DNA from: Armatimonadota bacterium
GTDB lineage: Bacteria > Armatimonadota > DTGP01 > JAKQQT01
Assembly (NCBI GenBank): GCA_036504095.1
Contig: DASXVS010000002.1
Location: 118,184 to 182,183, forward strand
Length of the DNA: 64,000 bases
Reading direction: 5' to 3'
Made by a program: the position numbers and the translations under genes. Shown here in pieces: positions 3,174-27,834 of this stretch. The notes beneath the pieces are model-generated. The model searched no databases and was not told the origin of the DNA. It saw only the letters and a program-made list of their open reading frames with translations. Position 1 is the first letter of the stretch. Each line of letters begins with the position of its first letter.

Positions 3174-4319
3174 GTGGAGCAACCGGCGCGCATGACTCCC
3201 GGACTGGAGACCAGGATGGCCTATCAGGATTCGATACATACGGCCGCGACAGAGGTTGTCGCGCCGCACACATATACTCTTCCCCCCGCGACCGGCGCCG
3301 GTTCCGCGGGATCGGGCCCATCGCCCGCTCATCTCTTTGCGGCCGTGAATGCCTTCCAGCAGACGGCTGTGCTGAAGTCGGCCGTCGAACTGGGCGTTTT
3401 CACGGCAATCGCCGATGGAGCCGCCACGCCGGCCGAAATCGGAGCGAAGTGCGGCGCCTCCGAGCGCGGAATTCGCATACTTTGCGATTTCCTCGTCGTC
3501 ATCGGCTTTCTCACCAAGGCGGGCGCAACGTATGCCCTCACGGAGGATTCCGCCGTGTTTCTCGCGCGCCAGTCCCGTGCGTATATGGGAGGCGCTCTGG
3601 ACTTCCTGCTGTCGCCGGCCATCGTCGGCGGGTTCCAGGACCTCACCGCCGCGGTGCGCAACGGTGGCACGACAATGCCGCACGAGGGAGCCCTGGCGCC
3701 AGACCACCCGATGTGGGTGCAGTTCGCGCAATCGATGGTCCCCATGATGATGATGCCGGCGCAGGCGATCGCGGGCATCGTCAACGGCGAGGCGCCGCGC
3801 TCCCTCAAAATCCTGGACATCGCCGCCGGCCACGGGATGTTCGGAATCACCATCGCGCAGCGAAACCCCGCGGCCCAAATCGTCGCCCTGGACTGGCCAA
3901 ACGTGCTGGAGATTGCCAAGGGGAATGCGCGAGACGCGGGAGTCAGCGACCGCTACGAAACCATCTCCGGCAGCGCCTTCGACGTCGATTTCGGAACCGG
4001 CTATGACGTGGTCCTGTTGACCAACTTCATACACCACTTCGACGTTCCCGCCAACGATGCTCTCCTGCGCAAAGTCCATGCCGCATTGGCGCCGGCCGGC
4101 CGGGTGGTCGCGCTGGAATTCGTGCCCAATGAAGATCGCGTCTCTCCCCCCATGCCGGCGACCTTCAGCATGATGATGCTGGCTTCCACCCCGGCCGGCG
4201 ACGCATACACCGCCGGACAGTTGACGGGCATGTACGCCGATGCTGGATTCCCAAGGTGCGAAGTGATCCCGTTGCCGCCCTCGCCTGAATCGGCCGTTGT
4301 CGGCTACAAGGAAAGCTGA
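3174..4319 (+). CDS. Class I SAM-dependent O-methyltransferase (with N-terminal dimerisation-like region)
   Basis: SAM-binding-like ILDIAAGHGMFGITIA, followed by VALDWPNV and VLLTNFIHHF. True start uncertain. Confidence 0.7.
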   Translation: MEQPARMTPGLETRMAYQDSIHTAATEVVAPHTYTLPPATGAGSAGSGPSPAHLFAAVNAFQQTAVLKSAVELGVFTAIADGAATPAEIGAKCGASERGIRILCDFLVVIGFLTKAGATYALTEDSAVFLARQSRAYMGGALDFLLSPAIVGGFQDLTAAVRNGGTTMPHEGALAPDHPMWVQFAQSMVPMMMMPAQAIAGIVNGEAPRSLKILDIAAGHGMFGITIAQRNPAAQIVALDWPNVLEIAKGNARDAGVSDRYETISGSAFDVDFGTGYDVVLLTNFIHHFDVPANDALLRKVHAALAPAGRVVALEFVPNEDRVSPPMPATFSMMMLASTPAGDAYTAGQLTGMYADAGFPRCEVIPLPPSPESAVVGYKES

Positions 4320-13093: not shown

Positions 13094-13169
13094 GCTCGCA
13101 GCCCGGACCAGTTTCCTGACCTCTTTCGTCGCCGGCCACGCTCGTAAAATCGGTACTTTCGGCCCTGTC

Positions 13170-13178
13170 TGGTACAAT
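13170..13178 (+). promoter_or_regulatory. Candidate extended -10 promoter element TGgTACAAT
   Basis: TGGTACAAT about 68 nt upstream of the 13246 start; the same TGGTAYAAW word recurs upstream of brnT and of the pilin at 43312. Confidence 0.3.
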
Positions 13179-13245
13179 TTCAACGCGATAGCATCGGTTG
13201 TGAAAGGGTTGGGTGGAGGGCACACCCGGCTCGGGAGCGGGACCG

Positions 13246-16197
13246 ATGCGTTGCAGATTGGCCATCATCGTGGGTCTGGCATTCGCGGCGTCCGCATCGA
13301 ACGCGGCGGACGACCGTTTGCCGCCCGGCGCCCCGGTCCAACCACCCCTTATCCGCGCCCTTCAGCGAACGATGGCGGGCCGGCCGGTCATCGGTGTGGC
13401 CCTGCCATGTATAGCGACGGCAGAAATTCCTACCGCCTTCGGACCCGATGAGGGACTGCTTCCACGGCTGCAAGCCATCGGTGACGCCGCCAGCGCCCCG
13501 GGCCTCCGCCTCATCCCGTTTGCCGTCGGCTCGGCGTGGGCTCTCGCCCCGGAAACCCGTGAGGAATTCCGGCTGCCCGACCCGAATGCACGACCGCTGG
13601 AGTATATGGACCGCCGATCCTCGCTGATGTGGTTCCTGGCGGCGTTGACGCCGGAACAAATCGGCCAGCTGGGCTCCGCGGACGGCCTCCCCGCGCGGGA
13701 CTTGCGCGGCGCCCCGCGAGCCGCTCTGCTCCGCGCGCTTCAGCCGCCGCTCATCATCGCGGAACGGCAGGAGCCGGTGAAGCCCGCCGCCGGGGAGGGA
13801 GACTTTGAGACCCCGGTATGGCGCGACGTGCGCCGCGTGGATGACCCGCTGGATGCTTCCAGCCTCCGCGTTTTCGCCCGGCTGCAAGTCCGTGAGGCAT
13901 ACTTCCGGACCAGTGGAGACCAATATGTCAGCCTCCCTGTCGTCCCGCCGCCTGATGAACGCGCGCTGCGAGGGGATCGGGCCGGCAAGACCATTGGCCT
14001 TTATGGCAACCTTGAGATTCCCTGCATCACCATGGTCGCCAACCGCTACAAACCCTCGGATCTGACCGGCGGGACACTGCGGCAGCCGATCGGACTGGAA
14101 GGCGTCCACACGGTCAAAGAGGTCGTTGAAGCCGCATCCCGAGCGACCGGTTTGACGCTCCACGTGATTCCGATGTGGAAGGACATTCAGGTCTTCGTCG
14201 GCTCGAAGACCCTCCCGAGCGGCGACGTTATGGACACCCTTCGCCTGGCGCTGGAGGGGGCCTGGCGCAAAGTCGGGTCGGAATATGTGCTTGCCTGGGA
14301 CGTCCGCGGCCTCGCGCCCCTGCAGCGGTCCACAATCGAGTCGTTGGCCGGAACCAGCAAACGGACTGAGGGTATACTGCACTCGGCTTATCGGTCAGGC
14401 GCCTGGATCTCGATGGCGCGGAGCCTCATGTTCGACGAAGACAATTCCCTGTCGCTCACACGGGAGCAGCGGGACATTATACTGCCCGAAATCCCGGCGG
14501 GATACCCGACGATCGGCTACGAACAAATGACCCCGTACCAGCAGGCATGGGTGCAGACGCAGGCCCGGACCCGCGCGGTGACCGGGAGGACCGATAGCGG
14601 TGCGGTTTTCGAAAGGGCCATCTCACGGGACGAAGTCAGGGCCACCGCAATCAACAGCCACCTCAATATCATCATCTCGGTCGAGGAACCTTCGGTCGGA
14701 CGCCTGCGGCTCGACCCGGAGTTCGGCAGTATCGAGCTCATCGGGCAGGAGGATATCCGTCGGAGCGGGCTGAGGGACGCGGCCAAACTCTTCCCGGTGA
14801 CTCCGGAAATGATGAACTCGCCGGGCATATCGGAAGAGGCGGCGGAACCGAAGGACGAAGATGGAACGGACGAGGACCAGTCTGCGGATCCGGGCGCGTT
14901 TGGACCAGCCGCGATCCCGTCGCAAGAGCGGGCGGTGATGGTGCCCCCTACGGGGCCGGCCACACTTGGCGATCTGGCCGCCACCATGCGCCGCCACGGC
15001 TTCAACACGCTGTTCTACCCGGTCCTTTATGACGGTTACTCAACGATCCCGAGCGCGGCGTTCCCGCTGCATCCGGCGCTGCGCGGCAAGGACGGGCTGG
15101 ATGCGGCGTTTGCCGCGATGGCCGGGTCAGGCATCCAGGTCGTGCCGTACCTGAACACGCTCACGTGGCGTGGACCCGATCAACCGTCCCGAGTGCTGCG
15201 CAAGCACCCCGGATGGCTGGAGCGCGACATTCTGGGGCGCTGTCGTTCGGAATGGCTGGTGGATCATCCCCTTAAAGACGGTGATCGCGTCCTGGACGTG
15301 GCGATCGACCGCGACTACGTCCGCGGTTCGGATCCGGCGGTGGCTTCCCTGCTGCAAACGCTGCTCAAAGAGCTTTCGGCGCGGCAGGCGGTAACGGGCC
15401 TGGCCTTCAGCGACTGGCTGCCTGAGCGGTTCGAGGATAGGGCCTCCTCGAACGGGGTCTTGTCTACGTCCACGCAACCTCCCATGGGTTTCGCCGCACC
15501 AGACCGATCTGCCTGTCTGCGGGAGACCGGGATGGATCCGGTGGATCTCACCCTCTGGTGGGACCCGCCATTCATGCCGCGGACGATGTCGTCGCGCCGT
15601 GAGGATAATGAGCCGTGGGGGATTGGTTCCGATCGGTGGAACGGCGACGAGTCCGGAACCATCGGGCCCGCGGGTGCCCCTCACCCTGACGCCCGCCTGA
15701 TTTCCGCCCTCCTTGGCTCGGCGAAGGACCTGCGCCCGGACTGGGAGACGTACCTGTTCGACGCATCGGGCAAGTACCCTGAGTTGGCCGGCGGGCCGGA
15801 GTCATCAACGCCCCGGCCTGACCGGACGCTAACGCTCCCCGACCACACGATCGGCCTGATCCTGTCGACCGGCGAGCACGCGGACGGAGTATGCATCCCG
15901 TTGGCGTCTCAACTCCTCGTAAAGGCAATCCAGGCGCCCGATGTGCTCAAAACGCTCAACGAGGCGATGGACGGGTTGCGGCGCGGAGAGTGGCGCGATT
16001 TCGAATTCCACATATCTGGTCCGGACGAACCTCCGGATCGGACGCGGTATGCCCCGCCGTATACCACCGTGTTGAACTTCCAGCGGATGCCGGAGTCCAT
16101 CCGCGACACGCTTCGCCTCTTCCGCCCGCCCACTCCCAATGAACTGGCGCCGCCGAAGGTAACGAGCGCAACGAAGAAATTCGGCCCCGGTCACTGA
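13246..16197 (+). CDS. Large secreted protein of unknown function (984 aa); C-terminal third may resemble a YddW/GHL10-type glycoside-hydrolase-like TIM barrel
   Basis: Signal peptide MRCRLAIIVGLAFAASASNA; C-terminal segment HGFNTLFYPVLYDGYSTIPSAAFPLHPAL; sits directly after two GH43 genes on the same strand. Confidence 0.45.
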   Translation: MRCRLAIIVGLAFAASASNAADDRLPPGAPVQPPLIRALQRTMAGRPVIGVALPCIATAEIPTAFGPDEGLLPRLQAIGDAASAPGLRLIPFAVGSAWALAPETREEFRLPDPNARPLEYMDRRSSLMWFLAALTPEQIGQLGSADGLPARDLRGAPRAALLRALQPPLIIAERQEPVKPAAGEGDFETPVWRDVRRVDDPLDASSLRVFARLQVREAYFRTSGDQYVSLPVVPPPDERALRGDRAGKTIGLYGNLEIPCITMVANRYKPSDLTGGTLRQPIGLEGVHTVKEVVEAASRATGLTLHVIPMWKDIQVFVGSKTLPSGDVMDTLRLALEGAWRKVGSEYVLAWDVRGLAPLQRSTIESLAGTSKRTEGILHSAYRSGAWISMARSLMFDEDNSLSLTREQRDIILPEIPAGYPTIGYEQMTPYQQAWVQTQARTRAVTGRTDSGAVFERAISRDEVRATAINSHLNIIISVEEPSVGRLRLDPEFGSIELIGQEDIRRSGLRDAAKLFPVTPEMMNSPGISEEAAEPKDEDGTDEDQSADPGAFGPAAIPSQERAVMVPPTGPATLGDLAATMRRHGFNTLFYPVLYDGYSTIPSAAFPLHPALRGKDGLDAAFAAMAGSGIQVVPYLNTLTWRGPDQPSRVLRKHPGWLERDILGRCRSEWLVDHPLKDGDRVLDVAIDRDYVRGSDPAVASLLQTLLKELSARQAVTGLAFSDWLPERFEDRASSNGVLSTSTQPPMGFAAPDRSACLRETGMDPVDLTLWWDPPFMPRTMSSRREDNEPWGIGSDRWNGDESGTIGPAGAPHPDARLISALLGSAKDLRPDWETYLFDASGKYPELAGGPESSTPRPDRTLTLPDHTIGLILSTGEHADGVCIPLASQLLVKAIQAPDVLKTLNEAMDGLRRGEWRDFEFHISGPDEPPDRTRYAPPYTTVLNFQRMPESIRDTLRLFRPPTPNELAPPKVTSATKKFGPGH

Positions 16198-16226: not shown

Positions 16227-16646
16227 CTACCGCCCGGCGCGCGGCGGACGGCGGCGCTTGGGCGTGGGCGATTTGGCCTTCTTCAGCTCCGCCACGCGCA
16301 CTGCCTTGTCCATCCAGACCGCGAGTTCGTCCGGGTTGTCCAGCACGAAGGCGGGCACCTCGTAATACTGCATCACCTGATCCGGGTTGTCGAACGGCAT
16401 GAACGGCCCCATGCCCTCCGCCTCGAAATCGCCGCGATTGGAGCTGTCGACCTTGAAGTACAACCGGTCGTTGGCCATGACGGCGAAGAAAAGCCCCTCC
16501 CGGTAAAGGCCCACGCCGCCGAACATGCTCCGGTCAGTCACGTGCGCAACCAGATTCAGGACGCTCAGGGTTTCCGCGCGATATGCGGGTGTTACGGGCA
16601 CGGCGTTTCCTCCACGCGGCGACGCACATGATGGTGTACCCGCCAT
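16227..16646 (-). CDS. TfoX N-terminal-domain protein
   Basis: MFGGVGLYREGLFFAV motif characteristic of the TfoX_N domain. Confidence 0.55.
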   Translation of the reverse strand: MAGTPSCASPRGGNAVPVTPAYRAETLSVLNLVAHVTDRSMFGGVGLYREGLFFAVMANDRLYFKVDSSNRGDFEAEGMGPFMPFDNPDQVMQYYEVPAFVLDNPDELAVWMDKAVRVAELKKAKSPTPKRRRPPRAGR

Positions 16647-16708: not shown

Positions 16709-18145
16709 ATGGCTGTCACCGATCATTCAATCCTGCCGAAAACGCCCGCCGGGGAGATGCTCGCCCTCTGGCTGGACGCCGTGAACTCCGGCGACTTCGA
16801 GACGATCCGTCGTTTCATCAGCGAAAGCCATACCGCCGCTGCGCTGGCGACTCGCAACGCCAGGCAGCGGGCGGCGGCACGCGTGCGGACGTGGACCAAC
16901 ACGCGCGGCCTGACGGCGCGGCGGATCGTCGCGTCGAAGCCGCACGCTCTGAACGCCCTGCTGTTCGGGAACCTGGCGGAGGATTGGTGGAACGTTCGCA
17001 TCGAAGTGGAGCCGGATCCGCCGCACCACGTCAAATCACTCTCGCTCTCGCCCGCGGCCGCGCCGGACGACCTGCGCGAAGGCGGCCCGTTGTCGCCGCC
17101 CGAGATTGCCGAACGACTCGACGCCTACACCGCGAAGCTCGCAGATGCCGACATTTTCTCCGGCGCCTATCTGCTTGCGCGAAACGGCGAGGTGCTCACG
17201 GCCGGGGCACGCGGCCTCGCCAGCCGCGCGTGGAAAGTCCCAAACACCGTGCAAACCCGGTTCAACCTCGGGTCGTGCAACAAGATGTTCACCTCGGTCG
17301 CGATCCTTCAGCAGATCGAATCCGGACGGATCGCTCTGGACGACCGGATCGGCGGCATTCTGCCCGACTACCCCAACGAAGACGTGGCCGCGAACGTGAC
17401 GATCCGCCATCTGCTCACGCACACCTCGGGCCTGGGCTCGTTCTTCAACCAGCAGTTCGCGGGCGCATCGCGCGCGCGATTTCGCAAGGTCGCCGATTAT
17501 ACGCCCCTCTATGAGCGCGAGCCTCTCGAGTTCCGCCCCGGCGCGCGGTTCAGCTACAGCAACTCCGGCATGATGCTTCTGGGTGTGATCCTGGAGAAAG
17601 TGACCGGCGGTGACTACTTCGAGTACATTCGCGAGCGCATCTACGGGCCGGCCGGCATGACCCGCAGCGATTCCTACGACCTCGATGCGGACGAGGCGGA
17701 CATCGCGGTCGGCTACACCAGCACGGGCGCGGACGGTGGCCACCAATCCGGACCGCGCCGCAGCAATGTCTTCACACACATCGCCAAGGGCAGCCCCGCC
17801 GGTGGAGGTTTCTCAACGGTCGAGGACATGCTGCGTTTCGACCAGGCGCTCCGGGGCAACGTCCTGCTTAAGCCGGAGACCACCGCGCTGATGCTCACGC
17901 CGCAGGCATCAACGGACTTCGATCCGTCAGTGAAGATCGGATACGGGGTCTTTCTGGAAGAGTCGGCCGGCAAGCGCATCGCGGGCCACAGCGGCGTGTT
18001 CGCGGGCGTGAACTCGCAGTTGGACATGCACCTGGACACCGGGTTCACCGCTGTCATCCTGAGCAACTACGATCCGCCCGCCGCCAAGCGCGTGGCCCAC
18101 AAGGTGAGGGAGTGGGTGGCGGGGGGAGTGATGAATGATGAGTGA
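16709..18145 (+). CDS. Serine hydrolase, beta-lactamase/transpeptidase superfamily, with an extra N-terminal domain
   Basis: S-x-x-K motif (SCNK), YSN motif (YSNSG), HSG near the C-terminus; no signal peptide seen. Confidence 0.75.
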   Translation: MAVTDHSILPKTPAGEMLALWLDAVNSGDFETIRRFISESHTAAALATRNARQRAAARVRTWTNTRGLTARRIVASKPHALNALLFGNLAEDWWNVRIEVEPDPPHHVKSLSLSPAAAPDDLREGGPLSPPEIAERLDAYTAKLADADIFSGAYLLARNGEVLTAGARGLASRAWKVPNTVQTRFNLGSCNKMFTSVAILQQIESGRIALDDRIGGILPDYPNEDVAANVTIRHLLTHTSGLGSFFNQQFAGASRARFRKVADYTPLYEREPLEFRPGARFSYSNSGMMLLGVILEKVTGGDYFEYIRERIYGPAGMTRSDSYDLDADEADIAVGYTSTGADGGHQSGPRRSNVFTHIAKGSPAGGGFSTVEDMLRFDQALRGNVLLKPETTALMLTPQASTDFDPSVKIGYGVFLEESAGKRIAGHSGVFAGVNSQLDMHLDTGFTAVILSNYDPPAAKRVAHKVREWVAGGVMNDE

Positions 18146-24176: not shown

Positions 24177-24364
24177 AGGGGTTCTCCCCTCTGTTCCTCG
24201 GAGCCCACTATTCGCCCGCCCTCACCGCTAGCGAGACCCCAGGATCCTGCGCGTGACTAGACACCGATATGCTCTATCGACGGATTATATCACGATGGGT
24301 ATGCAAAGAAACCGCGCCAAACCTCTCTTCATCGCTCCTATGAGGGGCGCACGCACAACTGGAG

Positions 24365-24373
24365 TGGTATAAT
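24365..24373 (+). promoter_or_regulatory. Candidate extended -10 promoter TGgTATAAT upstream of brnT
   Basis: TGGTATAAT about 25 nt before the brnT start. Confidence 0.35.
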
Positions 24374-24918: not shown

Positions 24919-25719
24919 CTATAGCGCCCGTAGCCCCAGTTCGGCTTCGATCTCGACCAGAAGCTTGCGGTCCTCGTGCGTGAAATTGTGCCTCTTCAGG
25001 AGGTCCGGCCGGCGCTCCAACGTCAGGCGCATACTCTCCTTCCTGCGCCAGCGGCGGATCGCCTCGTGGTTGCCGCCCAGCAGAATCTCGGGTATCCTCC
25101 ACCCCCGATACTCCGCCGGCTTGCTGAAATGCGGGTATTCGAGCAGCCCCTCGCTGAACGATTCTTCTTCGAACGACTCGCCGCGGCCCAGCACGCCCGG
25201 GATGAGCCGCGCCACGGAGTCCACGATCGCCATTGCCGCAATCTCGCCACCGGTGAGCACATAGTCGCCGATAGAAACCTCGTCGGTCACCAGATGTTCC
25301 CGCACCCGGTCATCCACGCCTTCGTAACGCCCGCAGAGGATGACCAGGCGGCCGCACGCGGCGAACTCCTCGGCTTTGCGCTGCGTATAGGGCTTGCCGC
25401 CGGGCGTGGTGAGCACTACACGCGCGCCGGTTTCGCCCGCCGTCAGGTCCTCCACGCAACGGAAAATCGGATCCGGGATCATCACCATGCCGGCCCCGCC
25501 GCCGAACGGCGTGTCGTCCGTCTGGTGGTGTTTATCCGTGGTGTAATCGCGCAAATTCACCGCGCGCAGATCGAGCAAGCCCTTGTCCCGGCCGATCTTG
25601 AGCATCGAGTTGTTCAGCACGCCGTCGAGCATCTCGGGGAAGATGGTCACTATGTCTACACGCAGCCTCGCGGCAGTAATCGCGTTGACCTCGTTCTTCT
25701 CGATCGGGCAATCATTCAT
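24919..25719 (-). CDS. trmD: tRNA (guanine37-N1)-methyltransferase
   Basis: 266 aa; VDIVTIFPEML near the N-terminus, SPOUT-type SIGDYVLTGGE; start placed by codon arithmetic. The rest of the 869-aa track ORF is the antisense shadow of the gene at 25780..27834. Confidence 0.8.
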   Translation of the reverse strand: MNDCPIEKNEVNAITAARLRVDIVTIFPEMLDGVLNNSMLKIGRDKGLLDLRAVNLRDYTTDKHHQTDDTPFGGGAGMVMIPDPIFRCVEDLTAGETGARVVLTTPGGKPYTQRKAEEFAACGRLVILCGRYEGVDDRVREHLVTDEVSIGDYVLTGGEIAAMAIVDSVARLIPGVLGRGESFEEESFSEGLLEYPHFSKPAEYRGWRIPEILLGGNHEAIRRWRRKESMRLTLERRPDLLKRHNFTHEDRKLLVEIEAELGLRAL

Positions 25720-25779
25720 ACTGCAATTGTAGACCGCCTGCGCCCGCGCCAGGCTGCACCATGAGGAACCGGAATCTGT

Positions 25780-27834
25780 ATGCAACCTATCGTGAACCTG
25801 TGGAACGACTCGGAGGCCGCCGCGCTCGGCGACGTCGATATCCTCGCCTATGTGTCCCGTCTGCTCGGCGCGGATCCCAGCCTCGTCGTCTGGGGTGGAG
25901 GCAACACATCCATCAAGACCAGTGAGACGGATTTCCGAGGCCGCCACGTCGCGGTGCTCCGCGTGAAAGGCAGCGGCAGCGACCTCAAGGCCGCCAAGCC
26001 CGCCGATTTCCCTGCGGTTTTCATGGACGACCTGCTGCCGCTGCTCAACCGCGGCGCGATGAACGACGAGGAGATGGTCTCGTGGGTGAACCACTCCCTC
26101 CTCGAACCGAACTCGCCGCGCCCGAGCATTGAGACGCTCCTCCACGCCTTCGTGCCCGCGAAATGCGTTCTGCACAGCCACGCTGACGCCATCGTGGCGC
26201 TCACCAACAACGAACGCGGCGAAGAGGTTATCCGCGAGGTATTCGGCGAAGACCTTGGCGTCATCCCGTACATTCGGCCCGGCTTCCGGATGTCTCAGAT
26301 GGTCGGCGAGGCAGCCCGCAAAAACCCGGCGCTGAAAGGCGTCGTCCTGATGAACCACGGGCTGGTCACATGGCATGACGACCCGCGCGAAGCCTATGCG
26401 CTGCACGTGGAAATGGCGAACCGCGCCGTTGCCGGCATCCGGCATCCTGCATTCAGCATTCAGACTCCAGAGTCCGTCCTGGATGCTGAATGCAGGATGC
26501 AGAATGCTGCGTCTCTCGCGCCGACGCTGCGCGGCCTTCTGGGCGCGGACAAGCGCGTGGTGATGCGGTACGACGACTCCGAAGATGTCCTTCGGTTCGT
26601 GAACTGGGACCGCGCGCCGGAAGCGACCCGGAAGGGCGCCGCCACGCCGGACCACATCCTCAGCAGCAAGCGCCGTCCGATGTGGGTGATCGCGGACAAC
26701 CCGGCCGACATCGAAAGCCTCCGCACCGCCGCGCGGGAAGGCCTGGAGGACTGGCACCGCGATTACCGCCAGTGGTACGAAACGTTCAACTCCGGCGAGG
26801 AAATGCTGCCGCCGTACCCCCGCGTCATACTCGTGAAGGGATTGGGCATGTTCACCGCGTGGGACAACTCGGCCAGGGCCGTTATCCCGGCGGATATCTA
26901 CCACCATACCATCTCCATCATCGAAGCGGCGGAAAGCATCGCCCCGTACCGAAGCCAGTCCGACGCCGACGCCTTCGCCTCGGAATACTGGCCGCTGGAA
27001 CTCTACAAGCTCACGCTCGCGCCGCCGGAAAAGGAACTCGCCCGGCGCGTGGCGCTGGTGACGGGCGCCGCCGGCGCGATCGGCGCGGGCATCGCGCGCA
27101 AGTTCGCCGCCGCGGGCGCACACGTAATCTGCGCCGATCTCGACCTGCCGAAAGCGCCATCGCTGGCTTCTGACATCACCGCCGCGAACAAGGCGAACCC
27201 CGCGTTGGCCGTCGAAATGGACGTCACGAGCGAGCCGTCGGTCCAGGCAGCGTTCCGGCAGATCGCTCTGGCGTACGGCGGCATCGACATTCTCGTTTCC
27301 AACGCCGGCATCGCGCATAGCTGCCCCATTGACTGTCTGGAACTCGCCGACTGGCAGCGAAGCCTCGATGTGAACGCCACCGGCCATTTCCTGGTAGCGC
27401 GCGAAGCGCTGCGGATGATGAAGCAGCAGGGGACCGGTGGAAGCCTTGTTTTCATCGCGACCAAGAATGTCACCTCGCCCGGAAAGGACTTCGCGGCCTA
27501 CAGCGCGGCGAAATCCGCCGAGGCGCAATTGGCGAAGGTTCTGGCGCTGGAGGCGGGCCCGTTCGGCATCCGCAGCAATATGGTTAATCCGGATGCGGTA
27601 TTCGAGGGCAGCGGATTATGGTCGGACGAGGTGCGGGAGCAGCGTGCGAAGGCGCAGGGTATCCGGCCGGAGGAAATCGAGGAGTTCTATCGGAAGCGCA
27701 ACATCCTGCAGGCGAACGTAACGGCCGAGGATGTGGCGGAAGCGGCGTTGTTCCTGGCATCGGACCGCAGCGCCAAGACGACGGGCGCGATGATCCCGGT
27801 TGACGGCGGGATCAAGGACGCGTTTCCTCGGTAG
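25780..27834 (+). CDS. Bifunctional rhamnulose-1-phosphate aldolase / short-chain dehydrogenase
   Basis: N-terminal class II aldolase-like domain and C-terminal SDR domain (TGAAGAIG Rossmann motif, YSAAK catalytic motif); 684 aa. Confidence 0.8.
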   Translation: MQPIVNLWNDSEAAALGDVDILAYVSRLLGADPSLVVWGGGNTSIKTSETDFRGRHVAVLRVKGSGSDLKAAKPADFPAVFMDDLLPLLNRGAMNDEEMVSWVNHSLLEPNSPRPSIETLLHAFVPAKCVLHSHADAIVALTNNERGEEVIREVFGEDLGVIPYIRPGFRMSQMVGEAARKNPALKGVVLMNHGLVTWHDDPREAYALHVEMANRAVAGIRHPAFSIQTPESVLDAECRMQNAASLAPTLRGLLGADKRVVMRYDDSEDVLRFVNWDRAPEATRKGAATPDHILSSKRRPMWVIADNPADIESLRTAAREGLEDWHRDYRQWYETFNSGEEMLPPYPRVILVKGLGMFTAWDNSARAVIPADIYHHTISIIEAAESIAPYRSQSDADAFASEYWPLELYKLTLAPPEKELARRVALVTGAAGAIGAGIARKFAAAGAHVICADLDLPKAPSLASDITAANKANPALAVEMDVTSEPSVQAAFRQIALAYGGIDILVSNAGIAHSCPIDCLELADWQRSLDVNATGHFLVAREALRMMKQQGTGGSLVFIATKNVTSPGKDFAAYSAAKSAEAQLAKVLALEAGPFGIRSNMVNPDAVFEGSGLWSDEVREQRAKAQGIRPEEIEEFYRKRNILQANVTAEDVAEAALFLASDRSAKTTGAMIPVDGGIKDAFPR
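26440..26512. repeat. Imperfect palindrome embedded in the aldolase/SDR coding sequence
   Basis: GCATCCTGCATTCAG ... CTGAATGCAGGATGC perfect 15-bp inverted repeat with flanking CATTCAG/CTGAATG words, coding for ..GIRHPAFSIQTPESVLDAECRMQNAAS.. Confidence 0.5.

Follow-up and report, generated by a model that had tools for sequence, protein, structure and literature searches.

The characterized enzymes of the GHL10 family (PF02638) cleave peptidoglycan glycan strands. Cwp19 of Clostridioides difficile (PDB 5OQ2/5OQ3), for which a structure has been solved, acts as a lytic transglycosylase, with 1,6-anhydroMurNAc products (PMC6016235); its residue D196 has been proposed to be catalytic or to stabilize an intermediate, and the conserved residues of its pocket have been listed (PMC5765458). 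DigH (YddW), which is localized to the divisome of Escherichia coli, is a hydrolase specific for denuded (peptide-free) glycans (PMC12288456). Here we describe a gene from an Armatimonadota metagenome-assembled genome (MAG; assembly GCA_036504095.1) that occupies 13246..16197 (+) of a 64,000-nucleotide stretch of contig DASXVS010000002.1, hereafter the window, and whose product, VGM51_00740, is predicted to carry a remote homolog of these barrels behind a large N-terminal module. The protein belongs to a family not described before, which is multi-copy and highly diversified and so far appears to be confined to Armatimonadota. We propose that it is an exported enzyme that would cleave an amino-sugar glycan with D723 as its acid and whose gene would be transcribed from its own 5' region, an explanation to which, taken whole, we assign a probability of about 45%.

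The plus-strand frame is open from a GTG at 13213 (994 amino acids) through the stop at 16197 and is the longest frame. Translation from the ATG at 13246 gives 983 residues plus a stop, and this product matches the deposited "hypothetical protein VGM51_00740" (NCBI/JGI, Armatimonadota MAG) at 100% identity and coverage. A ribosome-binding site, GGGAG, can be read from the sequence at 13233..13237 (+), 8 nt before the ATG, and is conserved at the locus of the only close ortholog, P0002 (locus L001). The intact plus-strand open reading frame (ORF) on which the original prediction was built is therefore real, given the identical deposited protein, although the 984 residues claimed for it must be corrected to 983, since 984 codons include the stop. 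High-GC DNA does yield many long spurious ORFs, and several on the minus strand overlap this gene, but the idea that the frame is itself a chance opening or a pseudogene can be dismissed almost completely: the product is 54-55% identical to P0002 over its full length, scores 924 bits against the family profile in hmmsearch, keeps 67 of 74 positions that are well conserved in the family, has hundreds of family members and gives a confident structure model, whereas the overlapping minus-strand ORFs have no Pfam matches. No tandem repeats were found in the region of the gene.

A word-indexed search of 5.8 billion proteins, made with the single protein and then with a 50-sequence profile, returned only the protein itself and P0002, so that the family came to light only in an exhaustive profile search. 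HMMER run against 1.84 billion cluster representatives gave 456 matches at E<=1e-3, of which 206 reached E<=1e-10 and 66 reached E<=1e-30. The members are nearly all 870-980 residues long and match in two blocks, at approximately residues 20-490 and from 555 to 780 or further. Taxonomy could be recovered for 19 members, all of them from Armatimonadota, and all source names read "hypothetical protein." Indeed, when a collection of genomes from 185,579 species was scanned with a 12-sequence family alignment, all eight loci obtained were from Armatimonadota, including Armatimonadales, Capsulimonas and Capsulimonadaceae, and a distant subfamily maps to the same Armatimonadota genomes. Multiple copies are found: MAG SMAG_U4717 has at least four on three contigs, the MAG that supplied the window carries a second member, VGM51_08985, and overlapping or abutting tandem pairs, 34-45% identical, are present in L003, L004-L006/L008, L007 and L010, with two further copies lying within 8 kb in L014. 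Median pairwise identity within the subfamily of VGM51_00740 is about 26% (25.7%). A placement of VGM51_00740 on a long, fast-evolving branch was considered and rejected, as its median identity to the subfamily is 28.6% versus 25.7% within it. We regard this set of proteins as very probably a new GHL10-related family. The barrel fold and its superfamily are known already; what is new is the family, its restriction to Armatimonadota, its multi-copy and tandem organization, its altered pocket and its 470-residue N-terminal module without detectable relatives.

At first inspection the protein has no assignable domain, as the original prediction had stated: Pfam gave no match at E<=0.01, NCBIfam gave none, and PDB sequence searches with 2-sequence and 50-sequence profiles produced chance-level matches only. 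At E<=10 the sole relevant Pfam signal lay at residues 577-671, a stretch that runs from beta1/beta2 to beta3, and was to GHL6 (PF14871, "hypothetical glycosyl hydrolase 6"); with E 0.027 and 15.1 bits, it falls short of the gathering cut-off of 35. No match to GHL10 (gathering cut-off 27.9 bits) was obtained even at E<=10. Among 50 relatives, 18 match GHL6 (best E 9.3e-10) in the C-terminal block, the commonest Pfam signal in the family, and seven match GHL10 (best E 2.4e-7), always in that same block. We found no characterized GHL6 member. Profile comparison pointed in the same direction. The family C-terminal profile was aligned by local hhalign with Cwp19 plus DigH, the latter taken from the E. 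coli K-12 genome and the former rebuilt from the HMMER alignment of DigH with 5OQ2 (chain index + 5 = native numbering), and gave a probability of 94% (E 1.4e-7) over 131 columns, corresponding to residues 572-727 of VGM51_00740, which take in the first half of the barrel only.

Modeling with AlphaFold depended on the alignment supplied. With the two-sequence alignment, the mean predicted local distance difference test (pLDDT) score was 28.6 and the model was unusable; with the 50-sequence family alignment, the mean pLDDT was 81.8, the predicted template modeling (pTM) score was 0.84, and 514 residues scored >=90. The high pTM suggests a defined packing of the two modules. These are a mixed alpha/beta N-terminal module, residues ~30-500 (13333..14745, +), with pLDDT mostly >90, and a C-terminal (beta/alpha)8 barrel, residues ~556-960 (14911..16125, +), joined by an acidic linker, residues 501-555 (14746..14910, +), in which pLDDT is 41-64, conservation 0.12-0.29 and gaps reach 63%. 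The fold of the barrel is closest to that of Cwp19, and its next structural neighbors are GH153 and GH20, families that act on N-acetylhexosamine polymers by way of acids at the end of beta4. On model and profiles together, we assign the C-terminal part to the GHL10/GHL6 lineage of barrels as a remote homolog. The resemblance of the C-terminal third to YddW/GHL10-like barrels that had been noted earlier thus holds as a GHL-type resemblance, while the "third" is in fact about 41% of the protein; and since there is a glycoside hydrolase (GH)-type barrel and no curated family, the label of candidate novel carbohydrate-active enzyme or binding protein was a fair one.

Identity to Cwp19 is 12-14%, and the barrel has large insertions at residues 640-696, 725-745, 780-812, 840-865 and 890-935. 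Cwp19 bears C-terminal CWB2 wall-binding repeats, whereas VGM51_00740 has the 470-residue N-terminal module instead. DigH shares remote homology, both would be proteins of the envelope, and by eye its "PDGTALWPS" resembles the family consensus "YDGYATFPS" and its beta8 "LFR" the family "DFR"; however, DigH is a 439-residue lipoprotein consisting of the barrel only, single-copy and widespread, in contrast to a multi-copy family of proteins of about 900 residues in one phylum. For the C-terminal domain of PgaB/BpsB (GH153) and for the GH20 and GH84 N-acetylhexosaminidases there is no detectable sequence homology, and the D-E or D-D pair is absent from VGM51_00740. The N-terminal domain of PgaB is a CE4 deacetylase with a His-His-Asp metal site, whereas the N-terminal module here has no conserved His.

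Residue conservation was counted among 121 full-length relatives. In the hhalign alignment, S722-D723-W724 (15409..15417, +), at the C-terminal end of beta4, falls on D195-D196-Y197 of Cwp19, so that the equivalent of D196 is kept as D723 and that of D195 is lost. Of the relatives, 97 have an acid at 722 or 723, and eight have one at both. D723 is thus the best candidate for the catalytic acid, as judged from this alignment. Position 944, at the C-terminal end of the predicted beta8, is Asp or Glu in 114 relatives (94%). Elsewhere, G147, R341 and G748 are invariant (121/121), R754, D764 and D767 are each found in 120, and K269 is conserved in 114, D352 in 113, D659 in 110 (with Glu in four more) and W641 in 105. 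Because D764 and D767 precede a predicted strand rather than follow it, they may be structural.

VGM51_00740 departs from this pattern at a few informative positions. H649R and W650V (15190..15195, +) are its own: His-Trp stands here in nearly all subfamily-A relatives, P0002 included. D659E and D944N (16075..16077, +) are shared with P0002. Taken together, the four substitutions probably give the protein a specificity unlike that of its paralogs and may also lower its activity. In GH85 enzymes, Asn takes the place of the Asp used by GH18 and GH20, and D944N need not be inactivating if the residue only polarizes or orients the substrate. Read from the alignment, D944N would nevertheless mark this lineage as functionally distinct from its paralogs.

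The protein is predicted to be exported. On inspection, its N terminus, MRCRLAIIVGLAFAASASNA|ADD, is laid out like a Sec-type signal peptide (residues 1-20; 13246..13305, +), in which a positive n-region (MRCR) and a hydrophobic h-region (LAIIVGLAFAA) precede a c-region with a small-x-small motif (SASNA|A), and cleavage is predicted after SNA. The best 12-residue Kyte-Doolittle window scores 2.47, and a heuristic check detected no lipobox. Of 117 full-length relatives, 95 have a comparable hydrophobic N-terminal segment but only nine a lipobox-like motif, in keeping with the signal peptide claimed in the original prediction. The sequence features of a type I signal argue that VGM51_00740 is a Sec-exported protein of the cell envelope or the extracellular space.

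No family could be assigned to the N-terminal module. The modules of eight members had no Pfam family match at E<=10, nor did the N-terminal half of 50 relatives, apart from a weak ALTTAQ-repeat match in one of them (E 0.016), and the PDB profile search found nothing for the module. The module is always accompanied by the barrel; matches to the module only look like fragments and have no Pfam domains. Its family-invariant residues are G147, K269, R341 and D352. In the model, residues 286-350 (14101..14295, +) form a beta-alpha-beta-beta-alpha-beta-beta unit with the pattern V.DVL..LA..TGL.L...PVF.GS...GDVLD.LRL.L.AAWRK.GD.Y.L.WD, which is possibly secretin-N0/STN-like: the order of secondary-structure elements is that of the STN/secretin-N0 domains of FecA, DotD and the C-terminal domains of FecR/PupR, but the context differs, being a secreted GH-like protein and not a TonB-dependent transducer, an anti-sigma factor or a secretin. 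None of eight N-terminal segments matched the STN hidden Markov model (Pfam, E<=10), and hhalign against E. coli FecA(1-130) and FecR gave probabilities of 1-5% (pairwise P 0.009 and 0.046), which are not significant; the best of these non-significant local alignments fall on the STN helix-strand of both FecA and FecR. Foldseek against viral models returned mostly TIM barrels, together with a weak fragment match to DotD (E 0.23, probability 0.69, 92 columns, 23% identity), a protein whose fold resembles the N0 domain. The module also contains three conserved "LT/MT-x-x-Q" helix starts, LTPEQ, LTREQ and MTPYQ (residues 134-138, 404-408 and 428-432; window positions ~13645-14541), of which Q408 and Q432 are highly conserved; these may represent an internal repeat.

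The mechanism we propose is as follows. The substrate of the exported barrel would be a polymer of the N-acetylhexosamine type whose glycosidic bonds it would cleave: peptidoglycan glycan strands, or else a related polysaccharide of the envelope or the extracellular space. Such a substrate is favored because the characterized GHL10 enzymes cleave peptidoglycan strands and GH153 and GH20 act on N-acetylhexosamine polymers. Catalysis would depend on one acid, D723, and would be either lytic-transglycosylase-like or substrate-assisted. Through K269, R341 and D352, the N-terminal module would hold the substrate in place or attach the enzyme to a partner, and one may speculate that this Lys/Arg/Asp set would suit an anionic ligand. 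The arabinan, xylan and arabinogalactan named earlier as candidate substrates fit this poorly, because the nearest characterized relatives of the barrel act on N-acetylhexosamine polymers, including peptidoglycan.

The gene lies at the end of a plus-strand run that comprises genes for an O-methyltransferase, a GH106 rhamnosidase, a solute-binding protein, two permeases, two GH43 enzymes (the second referred to as GH43b) and then VGM51_00740. A convergent TfoX_N gene (16227-16646, -) brings the run to an end. The shared strand and the neighbors reported originally, two GH43 genes and a sugar transporter, are as described. The tight spacing is not: from the GH43b stop (13093) to the ATG there are 152 bp, more than in any other gap of the run (146, -8, -4, 103 and 33 bp). 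Neighbors at the orthologous locus are unrelated, P0002 being flanked on one side by a divergent PEP-CTERM gene and on the other by a Roco (LRR-Roc-COR) gene. The Roco protein, encoded upstream of P0002 at L001:3-2831, has LRR, Roc GTPase, COR-A and COR-B domains and is cut by the contig end. In the P0005, P0018 and P0015 lineage, the family gene or pair is followed by a small convergent ORF (73-86 amino acids) and a MiaB-like radical-SAM gene (L002:3952-8847, L004:13824-18826 and L007:5040-6702), with a GH116 gene a few kb beyond the latter in L002 and L004; this context is absent at the locus of VGM51_00740. The L002 copy of the small ORF, the only one scanned, had no Pfam match.

The 152-bp gap (13094..13245, +) probably serves the gene as a control region of its own. 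It can be aligned, without any gap, with the region upstream of P0002 from an 11-nt block, AAAATCGGTAC (13146..13156, +), through a CGC.ATA.CATC block to the GGGAG. AAAATCGGTAC stands at a similar distance from the ATG in L001 (~4190-4205; ~-100 to -90) and occurs once in the window; it is possibly a regulator binding site, an operator or a promoter element, the comparison being one of two sequences only. An extended -10-like motif, TGGTACAAT (13170..13178, +), is located 68-76 nt upstream of the ATG and, as it is not conserved upstream of the ortholog, is only a candidate promoter. The underlying pattern, TGNTAYAAT, occurs three times in the window versus 0.53 expected. No Rfam family, riboswitch or other known RNA, was matched in the gap. 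Since the 5' block has been kept although the upstream neighbors differ, the gene has apparently retained its own 5' region, from which it is most likely transcribed. The other two TGNTAYAAT motifs of the window, TGATATAAT and TGGTATAAT, are found at 24284-24292 (-) and 24365-24373 (+), 73 nt apart on opposite strands, and look like a divergent promoter pair.

The position of the gene invites a different explanation, in which the protein would serve the GH106/ATP-binding cassette (ABC)/GH43 locus in an accessory role, as a carbohydrate-active enzyme or a binding protein, co-transcribed with it and acting on side chains of plant arabinan, arabinogalactan or rhamnogalacturonan. The gene is on the same strand, is the last of the run and is bounded by the convergent TfoX_N gene; the protein is secreted and has a GH-type barrel, among whose structural neighbors GH29, GH42 and GH5 barrels are also found; and no terminator-like site is predicted between GH43b and the gene, so that read-through from GH43b is possible. 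However, the gap before the gene is the widest of the run, and the 5' block is common to an ortholog with unrelated neighbors. Moreover, phmmer found no homologs of the window's GH106, solute-binding, permease or GH43 proteins in any of 17 related loci, and the nearest homologous family, GHL10, acts on peptidoglycan. The genomes of C. calidirosea and F. ginsengisoli, which encode many extracytoplasmic function (ECF) sigma factors, GHs and ABC transporters, have been described as "disorganized," with genes of related function dispersed and poor operon organization (PMC4959169). Given this dispersal, adjacency is weak evidence of function here. An accessory role in plant-glycan use is therefore unlikely in our judgment, and the functional link to the GH43/sugar-ABC block implied by the original prediction is not borne out by the related loci; VGM51_00740 appears instead to be an independent gene rather than a component of that system.

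A further question is whether the barrel is an enzyme at all. Several observations weigh against the glycan-cleaving explanation, in addition to the lack of a predicted terminator behind GH43b. High copy number with extreme divergence is unusual for housekeeping peptidoglycan enzymes. In global hhalign, the probability falls to 49%, with zero confidence in the second half of the barrel, and the model is very confident in the first half but has low-confidence insertions in the second; the grouping of the conserved residues in one pocket is inferred, as they were placed by the C-terminal ends of strands only. The GHL10 pocket has been replaced at Q77 (P592), W127 (Y635), R132 (T640) and D195 (S722) in the hhalign alignment, and at W36 (M565) by eye on the beta1 sequences, leaving SD where Cwp19 has its DD pair. 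About 20% of the relatives have no beta4 acid, and Asn at 944 is found only in VGM51_00740, P0002 and P0056.

In a second alternative, the protein would be a non-catalytic, glycan-binding or glycan-sensing pseudoenzyme, with the GHL10-derived barrel as a ligand module next to an N0/STN-like unit and a role in envelope signaling, structure or adhesion. The replacement of much of the GHL10 pocket, the substitutions D944N, H649R and W650V, and the position of the strictly invariant D764 and D767 ahead of a predicted strand, where they may be structural, would all be compatible with such a role, as would the weak signs of an N0/STN fold. Members lacking the beta4 acid include one of the two tandem copies in L004 (8001-13708): copy 1 has a GHL10-like Asp-Asp at beta4 and copy 2 Ser-Gln, which hints at an enzyme with a non-catalytic partner. 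In addition, the distant relative P0085 (L018:1607-5221, 1204 amino acids) is an in-frame fusion of regions 2 and 4 of an ECF sigma factor (residues 45-200), a hydrophobic segment (~263-292) and the two-module ectodomain of the family; being known from one metagenomic contig only, it is either a genuine one-polypeptide sigma/sensor or an assembly artifact. Set against these points, 80% of the relatives keep the beta4 acid and 94% the beta8 acid, and W641 and D659 are near-invariant, a pattern like that of an active site. The sigma fusion is seen in one of 155 proteins, and no sigma or anti-sigma gene adjoins a family gene, although L004-type loci have an ECF sigma gene on the opposite strand at a distance of ~3 kb. 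The similarity to STN is not statistically significant. We therefore consider a pseudoenzyme doubtful. More specific still, and quite improbable, is an Armatimonadota-specific glycan-sensing system in which the barrel serves as the sensor and the N-terminal module, through its N0/STN-like unit and K269, R341 and D352, relays to envelope partners. Were it true, P0085 would be the one-polypeptide version that ties the sensor to ECF-sigma-controlled transcription, and the family would offer a route to regulate dispersed carbohydrate genes in a phylum without operons.

If, as we propose, the barrel is active, it would found a new phylum-restricted family of glycoside hydrolases or lytic transglycosylases, with a pocket unlike that of its nearest relatives and a large uncharacterized partner module, useful both for CAZy-type classification and for understanding envelope and polysaccharide turnover in the poorly studied Armatimonadota. 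The many divergent copies per genome point to diversification of substrates. For annotation, the locus counsels caution, in that adjacency to GH43 and ABC genes is poor evidence of shared function in this phylum. Cultured Capsulimonas strains exist, and because Capsulimonas relatives carry members of the family, experiments should be feasible.

Two further features of the window deserve mention. Beyond the convergent TfoX_N gene, at 16709-18145 (+), lies a gene for a 478-residue protein of beta-lactamase fold (PF00144), a family that includes peptidoglycan DD-peptidases. At 24919-27528 (-), an 869-residue ORF has a TrmD (tRNA m1G methyltransferase) domain only at residues 648-841 and overlaps a 684-residue class II aldolase/short-chain dehydrogenase fusion at 25780-27834 (+); the 5' end of the TrmD ORF probably reaches too far, through a GC-rich shadow frame.

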